Assembly (NCBI GenBank): GCA_963781885.1
Contig: CAWAHW010000001.1
Location: 448,001-512,000 of the forward strand
DNA length: 64,000 nucleotides
Source of the DNA: an uncultured Spirochaetota bacterium
GTDB lineage: Bacteria > Spirochaetota > Spirochaetia > SZUA-6 > Fen-1364
Reading direction: 5' to 3'
Made by a program: the position numbers and the translations under genes. Below are positions 2,534 to 39,868 of this stretch, piece by piece. Every line of letters begins with the position of its first letter. The stretch's first letter is position 1. Under the pieces are notes generated by a model. That model made no database searches, was not told the DNA's origin, and saw only the letters and a list, made by a program, of their open reading frames with translations.

Positions 2534-5137
2534 GTGAGAAAGCGAGTAAAACGCCTCCAGCACAACCTCGAACAAGAAAAAGCCATAGTGCGGACACTGA
2601 TTGACAATCTGCCCGATGGCATTGTCTTGAAAGACAGAGAAAGCCGCTTCATCTTCGCCAATCGGGTCATTGCGGAGCTGATGGGAGCGGCTGACCCATC
2701 GGTTCTGCCTGGCAAGACAGATCGCGATTTCTATCCCCAGGAGGTGGCCGATGCGTTGCTTGCAGAAGAGCGAGTTGTTATCGAGACCCGCAAGAGTTTG
2801 GTCAACAAGGAAGAGTCCAAATCGTTGTTGGGCGGGATGAGACGGGTCCTGACCACAAAGGTCCCGGTTTTTGACGCCGCCGGCGAGGTCACCGGCCTGC
2901 TTGGTATAACGCGCGACATCACGGAACGGCACAACGCGGAAGAAGACCTTCAAAGAAGTGACCGCCGCTACCGCGATCTCCTGGAGCAAGCCCCTGACGG
3001 GATCTTTCTCCTGGATGAAAAGGGGAACTTCCTCATCGCGAACATGACGATCTGCAATATGTTGGGATACTCGGAAGAAGAGCTGCTTCAGCGAGACATC
3101 CTGGATACCTACCCGCAAGAGTTACGGGAGGTGGGCAAGGCGCGTCTGGAAGAAATCATCTCAGAGGGGGCGGTACGATTCCAACGGCAGATGATGAGGA
3201 AGGATGGGTCTTCCTTTCCAGTTGAGATGAGTGCCCGAAGACTGGCAGATGGAAGGCTGCAAGGGATCGCGCACGACATCACGGAACGCAAACGCACCGA
3301 ATCTAAACTGGCTCTCGAGCGCAGGCTTCTCGAAGTCCTCCTGGACAATATTCCGGACTATATCTACTTCAAGGACACCCAAAGTCGCTTCATTCGTACA
3401 TCAAGGGCGCACGCAAGGATATTTGGCTTGCATGACGCCAAAGAGGCTATTGGAAAGACCGACATGGATTTTTTCTCCGAGGAGCATGCTCTGAAAGCTC
3501 TCGAAGATGAACAGCGCATCATTCGTACTGGCGAGCCCATTCTGAATGTGGAGGAAAAGGAGACCTGGCCAGATCGGCCGCAAACATGGGCCTTGACGAC
3601 CAAGATGCCCCTGCGTGATCAGGAAGGAAGCATCATCGGCACCTTCGGTATCTCACGTGACATCACCGAAACGAAGCGGGCCCAAGAAAGCATTTTGAGC
3701 CTCGCCCGATTTCCCGACGAAAGTCCTCACCCCGTCATGCGAGTCAAATCAGATGGGGCGGTCATTTACAAAAACAAGGCGAGTGAGGCTATGACATCAT
3801 CCTGGGCGGGTGTGGTTGACAGAAAAGCTCCCGAAGAGTTCTTACGTACGCTCACCCTTTCATGGGAATCGGGTGAGCAGAGGGAACTCGAGCTTCTCGA
3901 GGGCCAGAAGTCGTATGTTGTGACATTTGTGCCGTTTGCCGCCGAGGGGTATGTCAACATCTATGGCAGAGATGTGACAGAAGAAAAGAAACTGAGTGAA
4001 CGACTGAATCAGGCCCAGAAAATGGAGGCAATCGGTCAACTGACAGGAGGGGTCGCCCACGATTTTAACAATATCCTTCAGGCCATCACCGGCTATTGTG
4101 AGGTACTCAGACCGGGATTGGCCGAGAAGGACCAGAAGTTTTTGGCAGAGATCACCAAGGCGACTCAAAGGGCCGCGGCGCTCACCGCACAGCTTCTCGC
4201 ATTCAGTCGAAAGCAAATCTTAAGGCCTCAGGTTGTCGATACGAAGGATCTCATTGCCTTCATTCAAAAGATGCTCGAAAGGGTCATCGGGGAGGATATC
4301 GAGCTGCGAACCTCCATCGATCCCGATACGGGGAACTTTCTGGCAGACCCCGGGCAGATGGAACAGGTCCTGCTGAACCTCGCAGTCAACGCGCGGGACG
4401 CAATGCCTTCGGGGGGAACGTTCAGTATTGAAACTTCAAATCGCACATTCGACGAGGCCTATGTTCGCGATCACCCTGGGGCCAAGGCGGGGCTGTTTGT
4501 TTGCATCGCCGTGAGTGACACCGGAATCGGCATGGATCAAGAAACCCTCTCGCACATCTATGAACCGTTCTTTACCACCAAGGAGCTCGGGAAAGGGACC
4601 GGCTTGGGCCTGGCAACAGTTTTTGGGATCGTCAAGCAGAGTGAGGGCTATATCAACTGCTACAGCGAACCCGGCAAAGGAACGACGTTCACGATTTATC
4701 TCCCGGTTGTTCGCGCGGAGGCCGACAGACCGAAGGTTGTAGCCTCTGGAGTGCTTGCCCCGAGAGGGACGGAAACAATACTCCTCGTAGACGATGATAC
4801 GTCGGTTCGCAGCATTACACGGATCGCACTTGAGGGGGCGGGGTATTTCGTCATCGAGGCCTCAAGAGGAAAAGAGGCTCTGTCCGAGATCTCGACGCGC
4901 CACATTGCCGTCGCGCTGTTGGTCACCGATGTCGTCATGCCACAAATGAGCGGGAGAGAGCTCGCCCAGAAGCTGGAAGAGGCTTGCCCGGGAGTGAAGG
5001 TCCTTTATGTTTCGGGGTACACGGCGAATGTCATTTCGCACCATGGTATCCTTGAGACGGGAGTGGAATATTTGCAGAAGCCTTTCAGCACGATTGAGCT
5101 GCTCACCAAGGTGCGAGAGATACTGGACAGGCGATAA
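2534..5137 (+). CDS. Multi-PAS hybrid sensor histidine kinase/response regulator
   Basis: Several PAS/PAC repeats, H-box GGVAHDFNN, N-box LNLAVNARDA, FFTTK..GTGLGL, C-terminal receiver LLVDDD..TDVVMP. Confidence 0.95.
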   Translation: MRKRVKRLQHNLEQEKAIVRTLIDNLPDGIVLKDRESRFIFANRVIAELMGAADPSVLPGKTDRDFYPQEVADALLAEERVVIETRKSLVNKEESKSLLGGMRRVLTTKVPVFDAAGEVTGLLGITRDITERHNAEEDLQRSDRRYRDLLEQAPDGIFLLDEKGNFLIANMTICNMLGYSEEELLQRDILDTYPQELREVGKARLEEIISEGAVRFQRQMMRKDGSSFPVEMSARRLADGRLQGIAHDITERKRTESKLALERRLLEVLLDNIPDYIYFKDTQSRFIRTSRAHARIFGLHDAKEAIGKTDMDFFSEEHALKALEDEQRIIRTGEPILNVEEKETWPDRPQTWALTTKMPLRDQEGSIIGTFGISRDITETKRAQESILSLARFPDESPHPVMRVKSDGAVIYKNKASEAMTSSWAGVVDRKAPEEFLRTLTLSWESGEQRELELLEGQKSYVVTFVPFAAEGYVNIYGRDVTEEKKLSERLNQAQKMEAIGQLTGGVAHDFNNILQAITGYCEVLRPGLAEKDQKFLAEITKATQRAAALTAQLLAFSRKQILRPQVVDTKDLIAFIQKMLERVIGEDIELRTSIDPDTGNFLADPGQMEQVLLNLAVNARDAMPSGGTFSIETSNRTFDEAYVRDHPGAKAGLFVCIAVSDTGIGMDQETLSHIYEPFFTTKELGKGTGLGLATVFGIVKQSEGYINCYSEPGKGTTFTIYLPVVRAEADRPKVVASGVLAPRGTETILLVDDDTSVRSITRIALEGAGYFVIEASRGKEALSEISTRHIAVALLVTDVVMPQMSGRELAQKLEEACPGVKVLYVSGYTANVISHHGILETGVEYLQKPFSTIELLTKVREILDRR

Positions 5138-7871: not shown

Positions 7872-8243
7872 TCTGGTGGTGCGATATGAGCCGAGGGCCT
7901 TACCGTGCGAACTGAAGTCGGCATGCGCTTTTCCTCGAATTGGGAGGTATGACTCACTCTTGACCTTCGATAATACAATGGTTTCGAGGTTTTCCAGTAG
8001 TTCTTTCGTCGGAATGCCAGGCCACCGAACATTGGCGCGAAGGGGCTTTGCGGCGCATTTCTGGGTCGCTCGTGGTGAACCCGTAGATCTCTATTCTCGC
8101 CCACTGCCGTATACTATGCTGCTCAGGGCACATCTCGGGGAGCGTGCGTGGCGTTTATCTGGACGCTGCATGAAGCCGAACGCGGGGGACGGCGGCGCGG
8201 ACGGCAACTTGCCTGAGTTGAATGTCTTGGCTGGAGGCAACGA

Positions 8244-9963
8244 ATGACACTGAAGTCGTTATTGATCAAACTTGTGTTTTCGACTGCTCTCATCTCGGGC
8301 GCCGCGTTTGCAGATGGCAGGAGTATCGAGCTTAGCCAAATCGACAAGCTGCTGCCGAACCTTCCAAAGAACCCATCCAGCATAAGCGAGCTGGCCGACA
8401 GCGTGAAAAAGGCGTCAGACATGGATTTGGTTCGCGCTCGACTGATTTACAAATGGATCATCACCAATATCCAGTACGACTACGCAACGCTGGTTTCATA
8501 TGAGATCGGAGCCAAGGGAGTGCTGGAGAGCACAAGCTGGGACCAGTTGGCGGCGAGGATTCTTCGGGAGAAGAAGGGCGTCTGTGGTGACATGTCCTTC
8601 CTCTACTGGGTCGCCGCCAAGGACGCTGGCCTCGAATGTGAGAGCATTCTTGGCTGGTTCTCGATGCAGGATGGTGAGCTTCCCAACGATGCGTGGCAGA
8701 GAGGCGTACCGAATCATCGTTGGAATGCGGTCAAAATCGACGGCAGCTGGAGACTTCTTGACTGTGCTGCGCAGGAGTTCCTTGACCCTCCAGATCAAAT
8801 GATACGAACCCATTATCCACTTGTGCCTTACTGGCAGCTTATGGACTACAGACGGCCGGCAAAAACCCCGACTGCTCCCCCACTGGACTACCCTGGCGCC
8901 GCCTCATCAGGAGTTCGCTTCATCACTCCTGTCAACTGCCTTAACTTCACCAATAGGGGTCCCTTCGAGTTCGAGCTGGCAAACCCATCCGGCACGCCCC
9001 TCTCCGTCGCTGTCTCCAAAGGCTGGGAGACCGAAACGGTTCCCGCAAAAGCTGAAAACAAGGACGGCAAGACCTATGTCACTGTCGACTTCACTGGACA
9101 CGACGAGAAGGACTACTACACTGCGTCTGTTTTCACTGACAAGGAACCGCTGTACTGCTTCTTTATTGTTCTAGATAGTGCACTGGGAAAGGATCCCTGC
9201 TTCTGGGTCTCGGTTTCGCCGGGCTCGGTTGCCGAAGCCCAGGGGGCCATCGCGACCAGTACGTTGAAAATACAGAGCTTCAACAAATTCGAAATCCGCA
9301 ACGGCAATAAGCGTTTCAGGTTTGCCACGCGGAGTGACGGCGACGCTCTCGACCAACCCGGCGACGCCCGTCGCCGACGGGAATCTGACTTCAACCCTGG
9401 TCTTCACTTCTTCCGCTTTTGCAGCAAGAGGTACAACAAATGTGACCGTCACAGGAACATCAGGATCAATGGATCAAACCGTTACAGTTCCCCTGACAGT
9501 GACCTCGAACATCACGGCGCAGTTCGCACTCGGCACCGGTCTCATAAACGGCGATGTCGATTTCTATGGGGGTGTGCGCTATGGCCTTGGCGGATTCCTG
9601 GTCGGCGGGAAGGTACCGCTTTGTTATGGAGTTGCGGCAAGATTGTCATACTTTGGAGCTGTCGATTCCGGAAGCAAAGTCTACTACAATTATATCGGCA
9701 TTCATGCGCTGGGCACTCTCGACCTTGCGTGGAAAGACGTCCTTCCCAATTCTGCCTGGGCCGCGCCAATCGATTGCTACATTGGTTTCGGGGCTGGTAC
9801 CTACCTTTACGGCGATAGTTCGGGGTCTTTCCAGCCCACTCCAGATCTTATGGCGCTCGTCGGTGTCAGTTGGACCATCACACCCACCCTTACGCTCAAC
9901 GAGGAGGAAAGCTACTGCGGCTATGGCTTCAGTGGAGGAATCGGCTTGCTCATTGCGCTCTAG
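8244..9963 (+). CDS. Secreted transglutaminase-like protein with Ig-like and beta-barrel-like C-terminus (frameshift near 9293)
   Basis: Signal peptide. IYKWIITNIQYD, GVCGDMS and NHRWNAVKIDGSWRLLD give a Cys-His-Asp triad. Removing one A at about 9293 joins SATAISVSGLPRGVTAT to ORF 9322..9963. Confidence 0.8.
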
Positions 9964-35567: not shown

Positions 35568-35595
35568 TTGCAATACTGGTGTTTTTGTATATAAT
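35568..35595 (+). promoter_or_regulatory. sigma70-type promoter of the SBP-peptide-rSAM unit
   Basis: TTGCAA-16 nt-TATAAT in an AT-rich patch. Confidence 0.55.
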
Positions 35596-35619
35596 GGAGA
35601 AACAACTTTGTCCATCTGT

Positions 35620-37205
35620 ATGGAGAGGCGGCGTTCTTTGAGGTGGCTGCTCCTTCTGGCCATTCTTGCAATCCTGGCGGTCCCTGTTTTTGCCGACGGC
35701 AATCCGTACGGCGGAACAATTGTATTTGCCTACTACGATGAGCCGACGAAGCTCAATCCGCTTTATGCCGCGAGAGGGATATGCGGCAGCAATTGCCAAC
35801 TTTTTTACGGATGGGCTTATCACATTCAATGCGGCCAAAGAGGTCGTTCCAGACCTTGCTGAAAGCTGGGATGTCTCTCCTGACGGCCTTACATGGACAT
35901 TTCATCTCAGGAAAGGTGTCAAGTTTTCAGACGGGACCGAGATGACTGCCGACGACGTGCAGTTTACTTATGAACAGGGAACCAGTCCCAAGTATGGCAA
36001 TCCGTATTCCGATTTCTTGCAGGTCGTGAGAGGATTCAAGGCAGAAGGAAAGTACACTTTCAAGGTTTTTTCAAAGAGCCCCTACGGAGCCCTTCCAACG
36101 ATAATGAGCAGACCGATTGTTCCCAAGCACTGTTTCCTGAACGAGGCCACTGAAAAAGAGTACGACAAACACCGTGTCGGAACTGGCCCGTTCAAACTGA
36201 CGGAATGGAGGTCTGGGCAATTAACCTTTGATGCAAATCTCGATTATTTTCTGGGTCGGCCCCATCTGGACAGGGTTGTTTTCAAGCTTTTCCCCGATAA
36301 TAAAGTTGCATGGGCTTCGCTGTTGCGCGGGGAAGCCGACTATGTGCCGGAGATTGATTACGAGGATTACGCGGTAATAAAAGACGACCCACGTTTCTCT
36401 GCCTATGGGTATCTCGACGATTTTTGTTGCTCACTTTTCTTCAATAACAAAGATCCTCTTTTGTCGAATCGAAAGATTCGACAGGCCATTTCGATGGCAA
36501 TCGACAGGAAGGACCTTATTGACAAAGTACTTCAGGGTGGGGGCCTTGCCGCAAACGGTCCCTTCAAGCCGGGTACCTGGCCCTACAACCCGGATCCTGC
36601 GCTCCAGGCCTACAACCCGGCATTAGCAATGAAGATATTCGCCGATCTCGGATGGAAAAATAAAAACAACGAATGGGTACTGGAGCAAAGCGGCCAGGAG
36701 CTGAAATTCAAGGTTGCCATTTTTTCCGGGAGCAGCTCCGAAGAAATGACAGCCAAGAGGCTGCAATGGCAGCTCCTCTTGCGGGGATAAAAATGGAGAT
36801 AGAGGAAATGTCTCTCCAGGACCTCTTTAAGAAGACATCGCAACCCGGCTCTTTCCAGGCAATGCTTATTCCGTTCAACACATACCCAGATCCCGATACT
36901 TGCGCACGAAGTTTCTGGTATTCCGGCACATGAAAATCCCAGGGAATCTTCGCCTCTTACAGCAACCCTGCCGTCAACAGGCTGATCGATTTGGGCGGAC
37001 TCCTCTGATTTCAACACACGAAAAGGAATTTACCAGAAAATCCACAGCATGATTGCCCAGGATGCTCCAGCCGCATTTCTGTATTTCAACAAGAGATACA
37101 CGGCGACATCCGCGCGATTGCACGTGCCTGGCTTTGCTGAACATTTCGCAGTTAGCTGGTTATGTGCAGGACTGGTATGTGACAGATTCCAAGGAAAGGA
37201 GGTGA
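35620..37205 (+). pseudogene. Family-5 (peptide/nickel) ABC substrate-binding protein with multiple frameshifts
   Basis: Signal peptide. VPDLAESWDVSPDGLTWTFHLRKGVKFSDG, GTGPFKL, RQAISMAIDR. Frame breaks near 35770, 36780, 36930-37010 and 37130. Ends GYVQDWYVTDSKERR*. The breaks may be sequencing errors. Confidence 0.85.
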
Positions 37206-37210
37206 GGCAA

Positions 37211-37306
37211 ATGATTATCGAAATCGTCGAAGAGGGCTACTAGGAACTGGATGAGATGGGACCCATGATGTGCTGCGGTCTTGTCGTCGGTTCCACGGGT
37301 CGTTAA
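37211..37306 (+). CDS. Putative RiPP precursor peptide MIIEIVEEGY(TAG)ELDEMGPMMCCGLVVGSTGR
   Basis: Very strong SD AAGGAGGTG. Acidic leader plus Cys-Cys/Gly-rich core, immediately upstream of the rSAM/SPASM gene. In-frame TAG at 37241-37243. Confidence 0.75.
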
Positions 37307-37317
37307 GACATGATGCA

Positions 37318-37343
37318 GGGGAAAGGGCGAAAGCCTTTTCCCC
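37318..37343 (+). terminator. Stem-loop between precursor and maturase genes
   Basis: GGGGAAAGGGC-GAAA-GCCTTTTCCCC forms an 11-bp stem (one G-U) with a GNRA loop and no U tract. Confidence 0.65.
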
Positions 37344-37354
37344 GGAAAGATCAC

Positions 37355-38689
37355 ATGATCCCTTCACGATTCAATGTCACCGTCCCTGATTTTCCCGGGA
37401 GCGGCAAGTATCTGCTCTACAACACGGTCACGCAGGCCCAGGTCGTCATTGATGACGCGCTGAGGGCAATACTCGGGGAGCTCCCGACCTTGCCGGAGAA
37501 GGAAGAGGCCCGGACCGCGGTCGCCCAACTCCAGCGAATGGGCTTTCTTGCCGCCTCGGAAAGCGACGATACCGCGGCGCTGGAGAACCTCTTCAAGAAG
37601 GTATGGGATGACCATTCGGTCATTCGCGCCACGGTCCTGATGACATACTCCTGCAACTTCCGCTGCGTGTACTGCGTTGAAGAAGGAGTCAAGGAGCCGG
37701 TCTTCATGGATGAGAAGACGGCCTTGGAAGCGGTCGAATACATAGAAGGCAAGCTCAAGGAGTATGGCGCAAGGAAGATCGACGTTTACTTCTACGGCGG
37801 CGAGCCCCTCCTGAACGTGCCCGCCATCCGCACCATGGCTCGGGGCTTGAGCGATTTCTGCCGCGCCAACAATGTGCCCTTCACTTTCGGTTTCAACACC
37901 AATGGCGCCCTTCTGACTTCCGAGCTCATCGCGGAGCTCATGCCGCTGGGCCTGAGCTGGGCGAGGATCACAATCGACGGCCCGAAGGAAAGCCACGACA
38001 GGTATCGGCCCTTCAAGAACGGTAAAGGGAGCTTCGACACCGTCACGGCAAGGCTCACCGAGGCATGCACCCTCATGCCCGTGGACGTCAACATCAACTA
38101 CGACCAGTCGAATGTCGGAAAGGTGCCGGCCTTGCTTTCTTACCTGCAGGATGTCGGCCTTGCCGCAAAAATCGGCAAGGTAACCTTCACGCCCATCACC
38201 CCGACCCCGAAGGACCGGGAAGGGCTCCGGCCCGCAACGGAGATGGACCGCGCCATGATGACGGTGGAAACCGCCGGGCAGTTGATCGAGCTTTCACGCG
38301 CGGCGCTGGACAAGGGCTACAAGGTCGACGTGGGGGTGCAGGCCCGCGCCTGCGAGATGGTCCTTCGGCGCACGAGCTTCATCATCGACCCCCGGGGAGA
38401 CCTCTATGGGTGCAGCGCGTTGGCGGGGCGCAAGGAATTCCGGCTTGGGAATTTCCGCGGCGAGCAGAAGGACCCCTTCAAGGGCCTGGAGCTCTGGAGG
38501 CGGTGCGCGGGCTGCGTCTATGCGCCTCTCTGCGGCGACGGCTGTCCCTTTGGCGCGTACATCCGCTACGGCGATCCTCTTGCGCTGAATTGCATGAAGG
38601 AGACGATGGATTACTTTGTGAGGGAGAGTCTGAAGCTGAGCTACCTGAACAAGAAGAAGGCGAAAGCAGAAGCCGCCCGCGTCCCCTGA
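37355..38689 (+). CDS. Radical SAM/SPASM peptide maturase
   Basis: N-terminal RRE-like YLLYNTVT..LQRMGFL, CNFRCVYC, YGGEPLL, ITIDG, SPASM C..DPRGDLYGC..CAGCVYAPLCGDGCP..C. Confidence 0.92.
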   Translation: MIPSRFNVTVPDFPGSGKYLLYNTVTQAQVVIDDALRAILGELPTLPEKEEARTAVAQLQRMGFLAASESDDTAALENLFKKVWDDHSVIRATVLMTYSCNFRCVYCVEEGVKEPVFMDEKTALEAVEYIEGKLKEYGARKIDVYFYGGEPLLNVPAIRTMARGLSDFCRANNVPFTFGFNTNGALLTSELIAELMPLGLSWARITIDGPKESHDRYRPFKNGKGSFDTVTARLTEACTLMPVDVNINYDQSNVGKVPALLSYLQDVGLAAKIGKVTFTPITPTPKDREGLRPATEMDRAMMTVETAGQLIELSRAALDKGYKVDVGVQARACEMVLRRTSFIIDPRGDLYGCSALAGRKEFRLGNFRGEQKDPFKGLELWRRCAGCVYAPLCGDGCPFGAYIRYGDPLALNCMKETMDYFVRESLKLSYLNKKKAKAEAARVP

Positions 38690-39031
38690 ACTGTTTTCGC
38701 CGCAGCAAAACTCTGCAAAGGGTGCGGCAACGGATTCGCCGTCATCCCGATCAAGCTTCGCCTGGGAATATTCGGGGAGCAATCGGATTTCGGGATCGGG
38801 CTGGCGTCCGGCATCGAGTACTACGCCCTTCCGCTGTTCTTCGATTCCAATGACAACATCGTGCTTTCCGGCGACCCTTCGCTTGCAGGCTTTTTCCTCA
38901 CCCTGAAGGCGCTCGTGGAGCTCGACTACTGGGGCGGCAGGCTCACGCCCTGGGTGATGGGCGGCGCAACGCTGATCGGCACGATTGGCGGTGACGGGGG
39001 CGGCGACACCTACTATTACTACTACTACTGA
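38690..39031 (+). pseudogene. Start-less reading frame, beta-strand rich, ending in six Tyr
   Basis: 113 open codons in the rSAM frame after its TGA: ..FAVIPIKLRLGIF..IGLASGIEYY..LTLKALVELDYW..GGGDTYYYYYY*. Confidence 0.5.
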
Positions 39032-39064: not shown

Positions 39065-39769
39065 TCAGCGACCGTGCGCGCTGTAGCTCTGCAGCTCCCA
39101 TCGCTGCAGCGGTGAGCCCGGACCGCCGGAGGGGCTTTCGGATTTCACGAGGAAGTGGGGAACGTCCGCGGAAAACCAGTATGACGACTTGCCCATGAGC
39201 GATCCCATGAATCCGCCGATCCCCAGCTGCACCTTCCAGCAGTCGTAGCTTCTCCCGCCGGCCGTGACCGTCTCCCGTGCCGCGACCGTGAGCTTCGGTG
39301 AGAATTGAAAGCCCCGGCCGCCGGCGCCAAGGAAAAGGATGTTCGCCGAGGTGAATGTGCCCCAGGGAAGGCCGCGCAGGGTGATGGGAAGAGAATTGAA
39401 ATCCGCGATGACGACTTCATTCGCCTTCGGTTGGGCCGTCATCCTGAGGATTTCCGTCGTCCGCTTGATGAGAGAGTCCACGCTGTGCGACGTGACCTCG
39501 GAGGACCGGGGAAAGAGGGTGGTCGGATCCAGGCGCATCACGATGTCGGATTCGGGCGAGCTCGACCGGAACTCGTACCAGGAATCGCCCTTCGCCGTCT
39601 TTAGGCTCAGGCTCTGCGTCACCGTCCATGCGTCGCCGCCGATGCTCTCCGTGTAGACGAGGCTTTCTTCCTGCGGCAGCGATGGGTTTCTGATGACGAT
39701 CTGGGCGCAGAGGGGAGGTGCCCCCAGCGCAACGGCGAAGAGAATCGCAAGGAGCGCTTCGCGCTGCAT
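39065..39769 (-). CDS. Secreted beta-rich hypothetical protein (DUF3108-like)
   Basis: Signal peptide. ETVTAGGRSYDCWKV..YWFSADVPHFLVK pattern. Confidence 0.7.
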   Translation of the reverse strand: MQREALLAILFAVALGAPPLCAQIVIRNPSLPQEESLVYTESIGGDAWTVTQSLSLKTAKGDSWYEFRSSSPESDIVMRLDPTTLFPRSSEVTSHSVDSLIKRTTEILRMTAQPKANEVVIADFNSLPITLRGLPWGTFTSANILFLGAGGRGFQFSPKLTVAARETVTAGGRSYDCWKVQLGIGGFMGSLMGKSSYWFSADVPHFLVKSESPSGGPGSPLQRWELQSYSAHGR

Positions 39770-39868
39770 GGAGCAAAGTATACCTCTGAACGTCCGCACG
39801 GTTCATGAAAAGTAATAACAAATCACCGGGCGCGCTACATTTCCGTCGCAGCCGCCTGTATAATCGGT

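Follow-up and report, generated by a model that had tools for sequence, protein, structure and literature searches.

The window analysed in the current work, by which is meant the whole 64-kb stretch of DNA from an uncultured Spirochaetota bacterium, contains between positions 35568 and 38689 a cassette composed, in this order, of a binding-protein gene, a 31-codon precursor gene and the gene of a radical S-adenosylmethionine (radical SAM)/SPASM maturase with a predicted RRE (RiPP recognition element, RiPP denoting a peptide that is made on the ribosome and modified after translation) at its N-terminus. Taken as a whole, the evidence favours a spirochaete member of a sister branch of the geopeptide family, the cassette of which is probably decaying in this genome.

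Precursor gene and maturase

The geopeptide-like precursor gene (37211..37306; all features are located on the + strand unless indicated otherwise) is a frame whose translation reads MIIEIVEEGY*ELDEMGPMMCCGLVVGSTGR*, a leader (MIIEIVEEG) being followed by a core of the form ..CC.. and the frame being cut by an in-frame TAG that constitutes codon 11 (37241-37243). Its ATG is situated 5 nt 3' of the Shine-Dalgarno sequence AAGGAGGTGA (37196..37205), which has no second exact copy in the 64 kb and for which 12 matches are obtained, against 3.6 expected, when one mismatch is tolerated; the sequence is retained as GAAAGGAGGTGA in three related loci (L135, L138 and L136). The TGA within it terminates the binding-protein gene, and the ribosome-binding site of the precursor (37196-37213) coincides with the final binding-protein codons K-E-R-R-stop, an overlap also present in L135, L136, L138, L016 and L017, which implies that binding protein and peptide would be expressed in a coupled manner. 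A profile constructed from the peptides of 17 relatives was run over the window's genome, divided into 102,944 stop-to-stop frames; it retrieved the post-TAG half of the precursor frame as its top match (E 0.0008, the runner-up having an E of 0.29), and neither this profile nor a motif search revealed a second precursor in the genome. The window's own peptide gave no match to Pfam or NCBIfam models (the latter run with X at the TAG). A leaderless product starting at an internal ATG (MGPMMCC...) was considered and is unlikely, since it would be without the conserved leader.

Between the precursor and the maturase gene, an 11-bp hairpin with a GAAA loop (GGGGAAAGGGC-GAAA-GCCUUUUCCCC) is located at 37318..37343; the corresponding 59-nt stretch folds with a free energy (dG) of -23 kcal/mol and a z of -4.2, none of 200 shuffled sequences folding equally well. 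The z is -3.6 in L135, where the stem sequence differs, and -1.8 in L138. The structure is not terminator-like, as it is without a T-run 3' of the stem and hence unlisted by a terminator scan, and it is likely to act as an mRNA stabiliser or attenuator. The gap between precursor and radical SAM gene of L017 (minus strand, ~8215-8282) contains a 24-nt direct duplication, each copy of which carries a GCACGG-TACT-CCGTGC hairpin; here the hairpin position is retained and the hairpin sequence is not.

The maturase gene is intact and encodes 444 aa (37355..38689). Its open reading frame (ORF) spans 37310-38689 (459 codons) with an alternative ATG at 37310, and the start at 37355 is the likely one because seven homologues align from M16. 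The radical SAM cluster motif CxxxCxxC (CNFRCVYC, 37652..37675; C100, C104 and C107) is accompanied by a PF04055 match of 53.3 bits (cut-off 29.5), and a SPASM region (38351..38593) contains the seven cysteines C333, C353, C384, C387, C393, C397 and C413 (444-aa numbering) with the spacing C-x14-G-x4-C ... C-x2-C-x5-C-x3-C ... C, the number expected for two auxiliary clusters; the motif and these seven cysteines are invariant in an alignment of 67 homologues. Radical_SAM and Fer4_12 are the sole Pfam domains seen. In an AlphaFold2 model built from 67 sequences (predicted local distance difference test, pLDDT, 93.8; predicted template modelling score, pTM, 0.90), the barrel is preceded by an RRE-like domain (aa 1-87, 37355..37615) consisting of three strands (7-11, 18-23 and 28-33) and three helices (34-41, 50-61 and 69-85), which aligns with the N-terminal parts of CteB and of TigE. 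The top solved match is CteB, with an E of 4e-20 in Foldseek and a VIA Z of 27.7-27.9 for model residues 4-434; TigE aligns over model residues 1-434 (Z 26.2), while the anaerobic sulfatase maturase anSME, which is without the N-terminal RRE of CteB, TigE and the window's enzyme, aligns from residue 88 onward (core Z ~27). This predicted fold supports the assignment of the enzyme as an RRE-radical SAM-SPASM peptide maturase, and leaves its chemistry unfixed.

Each of the elements that an earlier note on this DNA had listed, namely the Cys-Cys frame behind what it took to be the strongest Shine-Dalgarno sequence of the window, a GNRA hairpin, and a radical SAM enzyme with an RRE-like N-terminus, CxxxCxxC and a full set of SPASM cysteines, is present in the sequence, and its interpretation of the pair as a RiPP-type precursor with an RRE-radical SAM/SPASM enzyme agrees with the predicted RRE fold and with the conserved adjacency of the two genes.

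Conservation and distribution of the peptide-maturase pair

This adjacency was examined in a census of fetched loci in which the window's enzyme is the best radical SAM match at ≥150 bits, amounting to 34 loci besides the window. L024 was dropped, being on the same contig as L018; L005, L007 and L015 share a contig with L022, and L135 may derive from the same population as L022. The census was performed by tblastn with few query proteins and depends on contig ends. Short Cys-Cys peptides upstream of the homologous enzymes, which the earlier note had proposed to look for, were encountered in 24 of the 32 loci that could be assessed (L026 and L041, being truncated, are not among them); they are encoded by short ORFs on the same strand that end 15-260 nt 5' of the radical SAM gene, and conform to MI(L/V)E(I/V)..G, followed by 5-20 residues, CC and a tail of 7-20 residues. 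Among the eight loci without such a peptide, seven carry a single-Cys peptide with the same type of leader just downstream of the radical SAM gene, and L042 has neither the upstream Cys-Cys nor the downstream single-Cys type. An aromatic or hydrophobic residue two positions past the last Cys is common in the census peptides. The peptide is very probably the substrate of the radical SAM enzyme.

The single-Cys branch (L032, L037, L039, L040, L044, L046 and L048) has the gene order radical SAM, peptide, binding protein and kinase, the peptide being located 300-1500 nt after the radical SAM gene and its Cys being followed by aromatics, as in MKLKVVKKG...WCFWYLYV. Because this variant exists, the vicinal Cys pair is, to judge from these sequences, not essential to the superfamily.

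With E ≤ 1e-20 as threshold, homologues of the maturase were obtained from eight out of 40 related genomes, in seven of which the match has E ≤ 1e-100; one of the eight, in genome G032 (27% identity), probably belongs to another family. They also occur in public metagenome-assembled genomes (MAGs) and metagenome contigs, and the nearest named relatives are Spirochaetaceae MAGs, in agreement with the spirochaetal origin that had been suspected from the sequence. None of 300 other genomes of the phylum matches the enzyme at E ≤ 1e-60, which reads as patchiness and not as absence, and the spirochaete clade appears, among the sampled genomes, to be restricted to the window's order.

Relation to the geopeptide family

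The best NCBIfam model for the maturase is TIGR04280, which scores 263.4 bits (E 3.6e-78), below the cut-off of 400, in an alignment that spans residues 17-440 of 459 and profile positions 2-420 of 428; CefB and TIGR04463 are the next models, and the enzyme scores far under the cut-offs of PapB, ScfB, CcpM and RumMC. The precursor model TIGR04229 (cut-off 30 bits) matches two of four relatives' peptides weakly (16.0 and 19.3 bits; E 0.008 for the L008 peptide and 0.0007 for that of L013) and the other two not at all, and it gives no match to the window's peptide with X at the TAG. NCBI-named geopeptide maturases are ~31% identical to the window's enzyme. The link to the geopeptide family that the earlier note had drawn is thus upheld as a relationship, while membership by the NCBIfam cut-offs is not supported.

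A quick maximum-likelihood tree of 52 radical SAM sequences (Shimodaira-Hasegawa-like approximate likelihood ratio, SH-aLRT, supports; several long branches) separates a geopeptide-proper clade (11 rows, support 98) from a binding-protein clade (33 rows, support 89), within which 14 spirochaete rows cluster together (99), L135 being the partner of the window (100). On this sequence evidence, the window represents a sister-branch relative of the geopeptide family and not a member by NCBIfam cut-offs, and homology between the two is hardly in doubt.

Geopeptide-proper loci are found mostly in Desulfatiglans and other Thermodesulfobacteriota; their peptides are Lys-rich at the N-terminus and have the tail ..CC....P(F/Y)R, and the peptide gene is located directly behind a TonB-dependent receptor gene. 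The plan of a leader plus CC, encoded upstream on the same strand, is observed in 11 of 12 geopeptide-proper loci inspected and also in the window. A TonB-dependent receptor gene adjoins the peptide gene in 12 of 18 geopeptide-proper loci, as against none in the window and none in 14 spirochaete loci, where SBP_bac_5 takes its place; this context is a feature seen here in geopeptide-proper loci and not a published criterion. One geopeptide-proper locus (L119, ~4180-4345), filed under a Candidatus Aenigmatarchaeota MAG, encodes two tandem precursors, one with CC and one with CF; the cluster looks bacterial, and its archaeal label may have arisen as an artefact of binning.

Binding protein, kinase and wider cassette

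The gene upstream of the precursor (35620..37205) encodes a family-5 (AppA/OppA-like) periplasmic solute-binding protein with a signal peptide, distributed over at least four broken frames, and is a probable pseudogene; its longest in-frame piece (35774-36787) matches PF00496 at 274.7 bits, the SBP_bac_5 domain thus being present in a reading frame that is broken. The closest match of the binding-protein profile is AppA, an oligopeptide binder (1xoc; E 1e-109). The earlier note had described a two-gene system, of which the precursor and the radical SAM gene stand, having overlooked this third, broken gene that forms part of the same cassette.

Within the census, a family-5 binding-protein gene adjoins the peptide/radical SAM pair in 28 of 29 assessable loci, and a membrane sensor histidine kinase gene is present in 25 of 30, mostly encoding a dCache domain; the usual domains of the cassette kinase are dCache_1, HAMP and PAS, and the protein is often either a hybrid or encoded ahead of a regulator of the LuxR, AraC or sigma-54 type. 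The kinases encoded after the radical SAM gene in two genomes of the same genus (L016:6086-8278 and L017:4986-7217) are without dCache and possess two membrane helices and a short loop, and by sequence they look as if the sensor domain had been deleted. TonB-dependent receptor genes occur in seven non-spirochaete loci (Planctomycetota, Omnitrophota, Auribacterota and delta-proteobacterial MAGs), ATP-binding cassette (ABC) exporter genes in at least six, and a MatE gene in L025, and no TonB receptor was found within the flanks of the 14 spirochaete loci, nor any importer permease beside the binding protein in spirochaete loci. This composition suggests a secreted modified peptide that would be bound and sensed in the periplasm. 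A complex prediction for the binding protein (residues 25-529) and the kinase sensor domain (residues 34-268) of L018 gave scores of 0.32, 0.36 and 0.28, a single control giving 0.17.

State of the cassette in this genome

The in-frame TAG, which the earlier note had treated as incidental, replaces the CAG (Gln) that constitutes codon 11 in L135, the flanking sequences aligning base for base. In L135, the peptide is intact, the C-terminus of the binding protein is in one frame, and the radical SAM gene, whose product is 81% identical to that of the window, is uninterrupted. TAG closes 1015 of 3629 long frames of the genome, and none of its 47 tRNAs has a CUA anticodon; recoding of TAG was rejected because no CUA or suppressor tRNA was found and TAG is in common use as frame end, in a search that did not extend to pyrrolysine genes. 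An 88-nt tRNA-like gene reported by ARAGORN (genome G000, contig C3, 12551-12638) has an odd anticodon loop and was returned without an identity ('tRNA-???').

When intact L022 and L017 orthologues are used as tblastn queries, the binding-protein gene of the window is matched in three frames with in-frame stops. It contains ~5-7 frame-breaking indels within 1.6 kb, positioned by DNA alignment with L022 as +1 at ~35770, -1 at ~36777, a cluster at ~36931-36951, -2 at ~36996 and +1 at ~37129-37133, all outside long homopolymers. At 37133, a ~98% identical strain in run X1 is without one T of GGCTTTG, which would join the frames LHVP... and ...LAGYVQDWYV. Six neighbouring genes (~6.9 kb), encoding a major facilitator superfamily (MFS) transporter, a dienelactone hydrolase, the radical SAM enzyme, a response regulator, a kinase and an ABC ATPase, each consist of one open frame with a full-length Pfam match.

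Neither a cognate kinase gene nor a remnant thereof is present downstream of the window's radical SAM gene. A weak tblastn kinase match at 38356-38715 was traced to an alternative frame over a radical SAM 3' end in the query and is not a kinase remnant. The next gene, on the opposite strand, is DUF3108-like, as in L022: a 244-aa ORF (39068-39799, minus) with a signal-peptide-like start, which has no Pfam match at E ≤ 1e-5 and is syntenic with an L022 gene that weakly matches DUF3108 (E 8.9e-6). The best match to the cassette kinase in the genome is located elsewhere (G000 contig C2, ~314750-317500; L139:5753-8492, minus), with 65-70% identity to the L017 kinase. It encodes a dCache-HAMP-PAS-HisKA hybrid whose reading frame shifts between HisKA and HATPase/REC, and no remnants of a radical SAM or binding-protein gene were detected beside it at E up to 10; to judge by its sequence, this C2 kinase may represent the partner that the window's cassette has lost, moved to another site and by now broken.

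Because of the TAG in the precursor, the broken binding-protein gene and the missing adjacent kinase, which is conserved elsewhere, the active pathway that the earlier note had implied is doubtful, and decay is likely to be real in this genome. In the radical SAM enzyme, 28 residue changes are unique to the branch of the window, as compared with 11 for L135 (p 0.009). In the same sub-lineage, the locus L022/L005 (G005 contig C19, 1906-3184) has an intact precursor and binding-protein gene and a radical SAM gene split between residues ~322 and 354, being in two frames where the near-identical L135 is uninterrupted, which constitutes a second, different lesion.

Several observations weigh against this interpretation. 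The ratio of nonsynonymous to synonymous substitution rates (dN/dS) is low both for the radical SAM gene compared to L135 (0.106/0.778 = 0.14) and for the binding-protein piece compared to L022 (0.123/1.47 = 0.08); both genes have therefore been mostly under purifying selection historically, and any decay is recent. The enzyme moreover keeps every site that is invariant in its 13 clade relatives. The nearest relatives are also without a linked kinase gene where this is visible (L022), and because of this, kinase linkage may not be required in the window's sub-lineage. The genome is a MAG of seven contigs, in which a locally error-rich patch would look the same, and six Logan-contig pieces of X1 (8% of words), the one public DNA run with related sequence, leave 37211-37306 uncovered; no RNA run with such sequence was listed. 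As regards the assignment of the enzyme and the pathway, the Pfam SPASM and PqqD models give no match on the radical SAM protein, and homology together with gene neighbourhood is the basis on which the chemistry and the export, binding and sensing of the product are proposed.

The main rival to decay is assembly error, that is, a cassette which is intact and produces its peptide in the living organism, the TAG and the frameshifts being consensus errors of the metagenome assembly. The base missing at 37133 in the X1 relative, the absence of which would restore the frame at that position, speaks in its favour, as do the dN/dS of 0.08 in a gene that is broken, the intact binding-protein C-terminus, peptide and radical SAM gene of the near relative L135, and the occurrence of a single frameshift in another gene of the genome, the C2 kinase. 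Assembly errors would, however, have to be packed into the 1.6 kb of the binding-protein gene while sparing the adjacent 1.33-kb radical SAM gene and five other neighbours, in a genome where one split was noted among ~25 kinase paralogue matches; the indels lie outside long homopolymers, and the TAG is a substitution and not an indel. Assembly error is for these reasons considered the less likely reading, and decay is retained as the preferred interpretation. The window's copy is probably non-functional and is not to be counted as biosynthetic capacity without read-level confirmation.

A sigma-70-like promoter candidate (TTGCAA-16-TATAAT, 35568..35595, 10 of 12 matches) is located ahead of the binding-protein gene; it is weak when taken alone, two such sites being found in the region against 1.4 expected.

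Proposed pathway and alternative roles

For the family to which the decaying cassette belongs, the following pathway is proposed. The leader MI(L/V)E(I/V)..G would dock on the N-terminal RRE of the enzyme, which would then modify the Cys-Cys core, most likely by one or two thioether cross-links from Cys to downstream residues; thioether chemistry, proposed by analogy with sactipeptides and ranthipeptides and in view of CteB as top solved match over the full length, is given a little less than an even chance. The modified product would be exported from the cell and would return to, or stay in, the periplasm, passing a TonB receptor where one is present. There it would be bound by the co-encoded AppA-like binding protein, which would inform the adjacent histidine kinase (dCache in most loci), so as to constitute a signal circuit for a self-made peptide. 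A signalling role is tentatively put forward from gene content and falls somewhat short of being the expected outcome. In the genome of the window, in which the maturase alone is intact, a mature peptide would be expected only if the lesions were errors of assembly. Ranthipeptides have been connected with quorum-sensing-like regulation in clostridia, as mentioned in PMC8102284 with reference to Chen et al. 2020. A wider proposal, rather speculative and unlikely to hold in all its parts, is that the family as a whole forms a peptide autoinducer circuit of diderm bacteria with an orphan AppA-like binding protein and a dCache kinase, and that the window's organism is losing signal production and perception gene by gene, the maturase lingering.

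A different role for the family would be that of a metallophore, the modified Cys peptide being re-imported through a TonB receptor and the binding protein in the manner of methanobactin, with the kinase reporting uptake. A Cys peptide surrounded by a TonB receptor, a binding protein of family 5 and an exporter, which is of the ABC type in several loci and MatE in L025, resembles the methanobactin apparatus, which is outlined in PMC7558416 as comprising the TonB transporter MbnT, the OppA/AppA-like binding protein MbnE, and MbnM. This role is nevertheless improbable, considering that the 14 spirochaete loci have no TonB receptor in their flanks and no importer permease beside the binding protein, that a single Cys is enough in seven loci, that the sensor kinase is the most constant partner, and that the binding protein's 60 best solved relatives do not include MbnE.

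It is very unlikely that the maturase has been kept for another substrate or role, independent of a dead precursor. It is the only intact gene of the cassette, and its retained clade-invariant sites and dN/dS of 0.14 could be read in that way; however, no other geopeptide-like ORF was found in the genome with a motif or a profile, and its branch is 2.5 times faster than that of its sister, a difference explained better by relaxed constraint than by a new role. The notion that the short ORF is a chance frame and the enzyme a non-RiPP SPASM protein (for example an anaerobic sulfatase maturase, which the earlier note had named as a refutation) or one acting on the binding protein, although solved anSME aligns over the core, a sulfatase gene follows one geopeptide-proper radical SAM gene (L104) and SPASM enzymes that cross-link proteins by thioether are reported in PMC13692751, can be set aside as extremely improbable in view of a TIGR03942 score of 63.5 bits against a cut-off of 349, the RRE that anSME does not have, the conservation of the peptide across phyla (24 + 7 of 32 loci) and its rank as top profile match in the genome.

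A literature search by family name, by the accession TIGR04280 and by system description, supplements being outside its scope, found no paper on the geopeptide family, which has a name in a database; the binding protein and the kinase, as its constant partners in the sister branch, provide a testable signalling hypothesis, for which small intact cassettes are available in relatives (L016/L017, L018, L020 and L021). New in the current work are the spirochaete clade, the single-Cys branch, in which the gene order is reversed, and a probable case of stepwise loss.

Comparison with known systems

The geopeptide system (TIGR04229 plus TIGR04280), defined computationally, is the best-scoring family for the window's enzyme. 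It has in common with the window's branch a leader of the form (I/V)x(V/I)(L/I)(D/E)xG, followed by 10-14 residues, Cys-Cys and a short tail, a peptide gene immediately upstream on the same strand, and nearby genes for uptake or sensing at the outer membrane or in the periplasm. The window's branch differs in having an upstream SBP_bac_5 gene instead of a TonB receptor gene and in being without the Lys-rich N-terminal extension of the leader, and the window's own precursor is interrupted.

CteB, the sactipeptide thioether synthase of Clostridium thermocellum (5WHY/5WGG), matches the enzyme in fold over its full length, including RRE, radical SAM barrel and SPASM (381-393 residues aligned at a root-mean-square deviation of 4.0-4.1), and likewise acts on a Cys-bearing peptide; its identity is 19%, and its substrate and ring pattern are unrelated. 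SCIFF/ranthipeptide maturases are related SPASM enzymes acting on Cys-rich cores, whose models the window's enzyme matches at 89 bits against a cut-off of 425 (TIGR03974) and 119 against 340 (PapB, NF047865); their systems are without a binding-protein or kinase cassette. The organisms of the window's family are diderm.

Methanobactin operons resemble the window's family in encoding, besides a RiPP, an exporter, a TonB receptor and a binding protein of family 5, as far as described in PMC7558416. They differ in that their clusters are without a dCache kinase, and their MbnE is not one of the top solved relatives of the family's binding protein. Methanobactin is matured by MbnBC and not by a radical SAM enzyme.

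In LuxP-LuxQ, a periplasmic binding protein is docked on a hybrid sensor kinase. The binding-protein family and the ligand are different ones; the likeness resides in the arrangement, an orphan binding protein without permease adjoining a membrane kinase, in many cases a hybrid one that includes a receiver domain.

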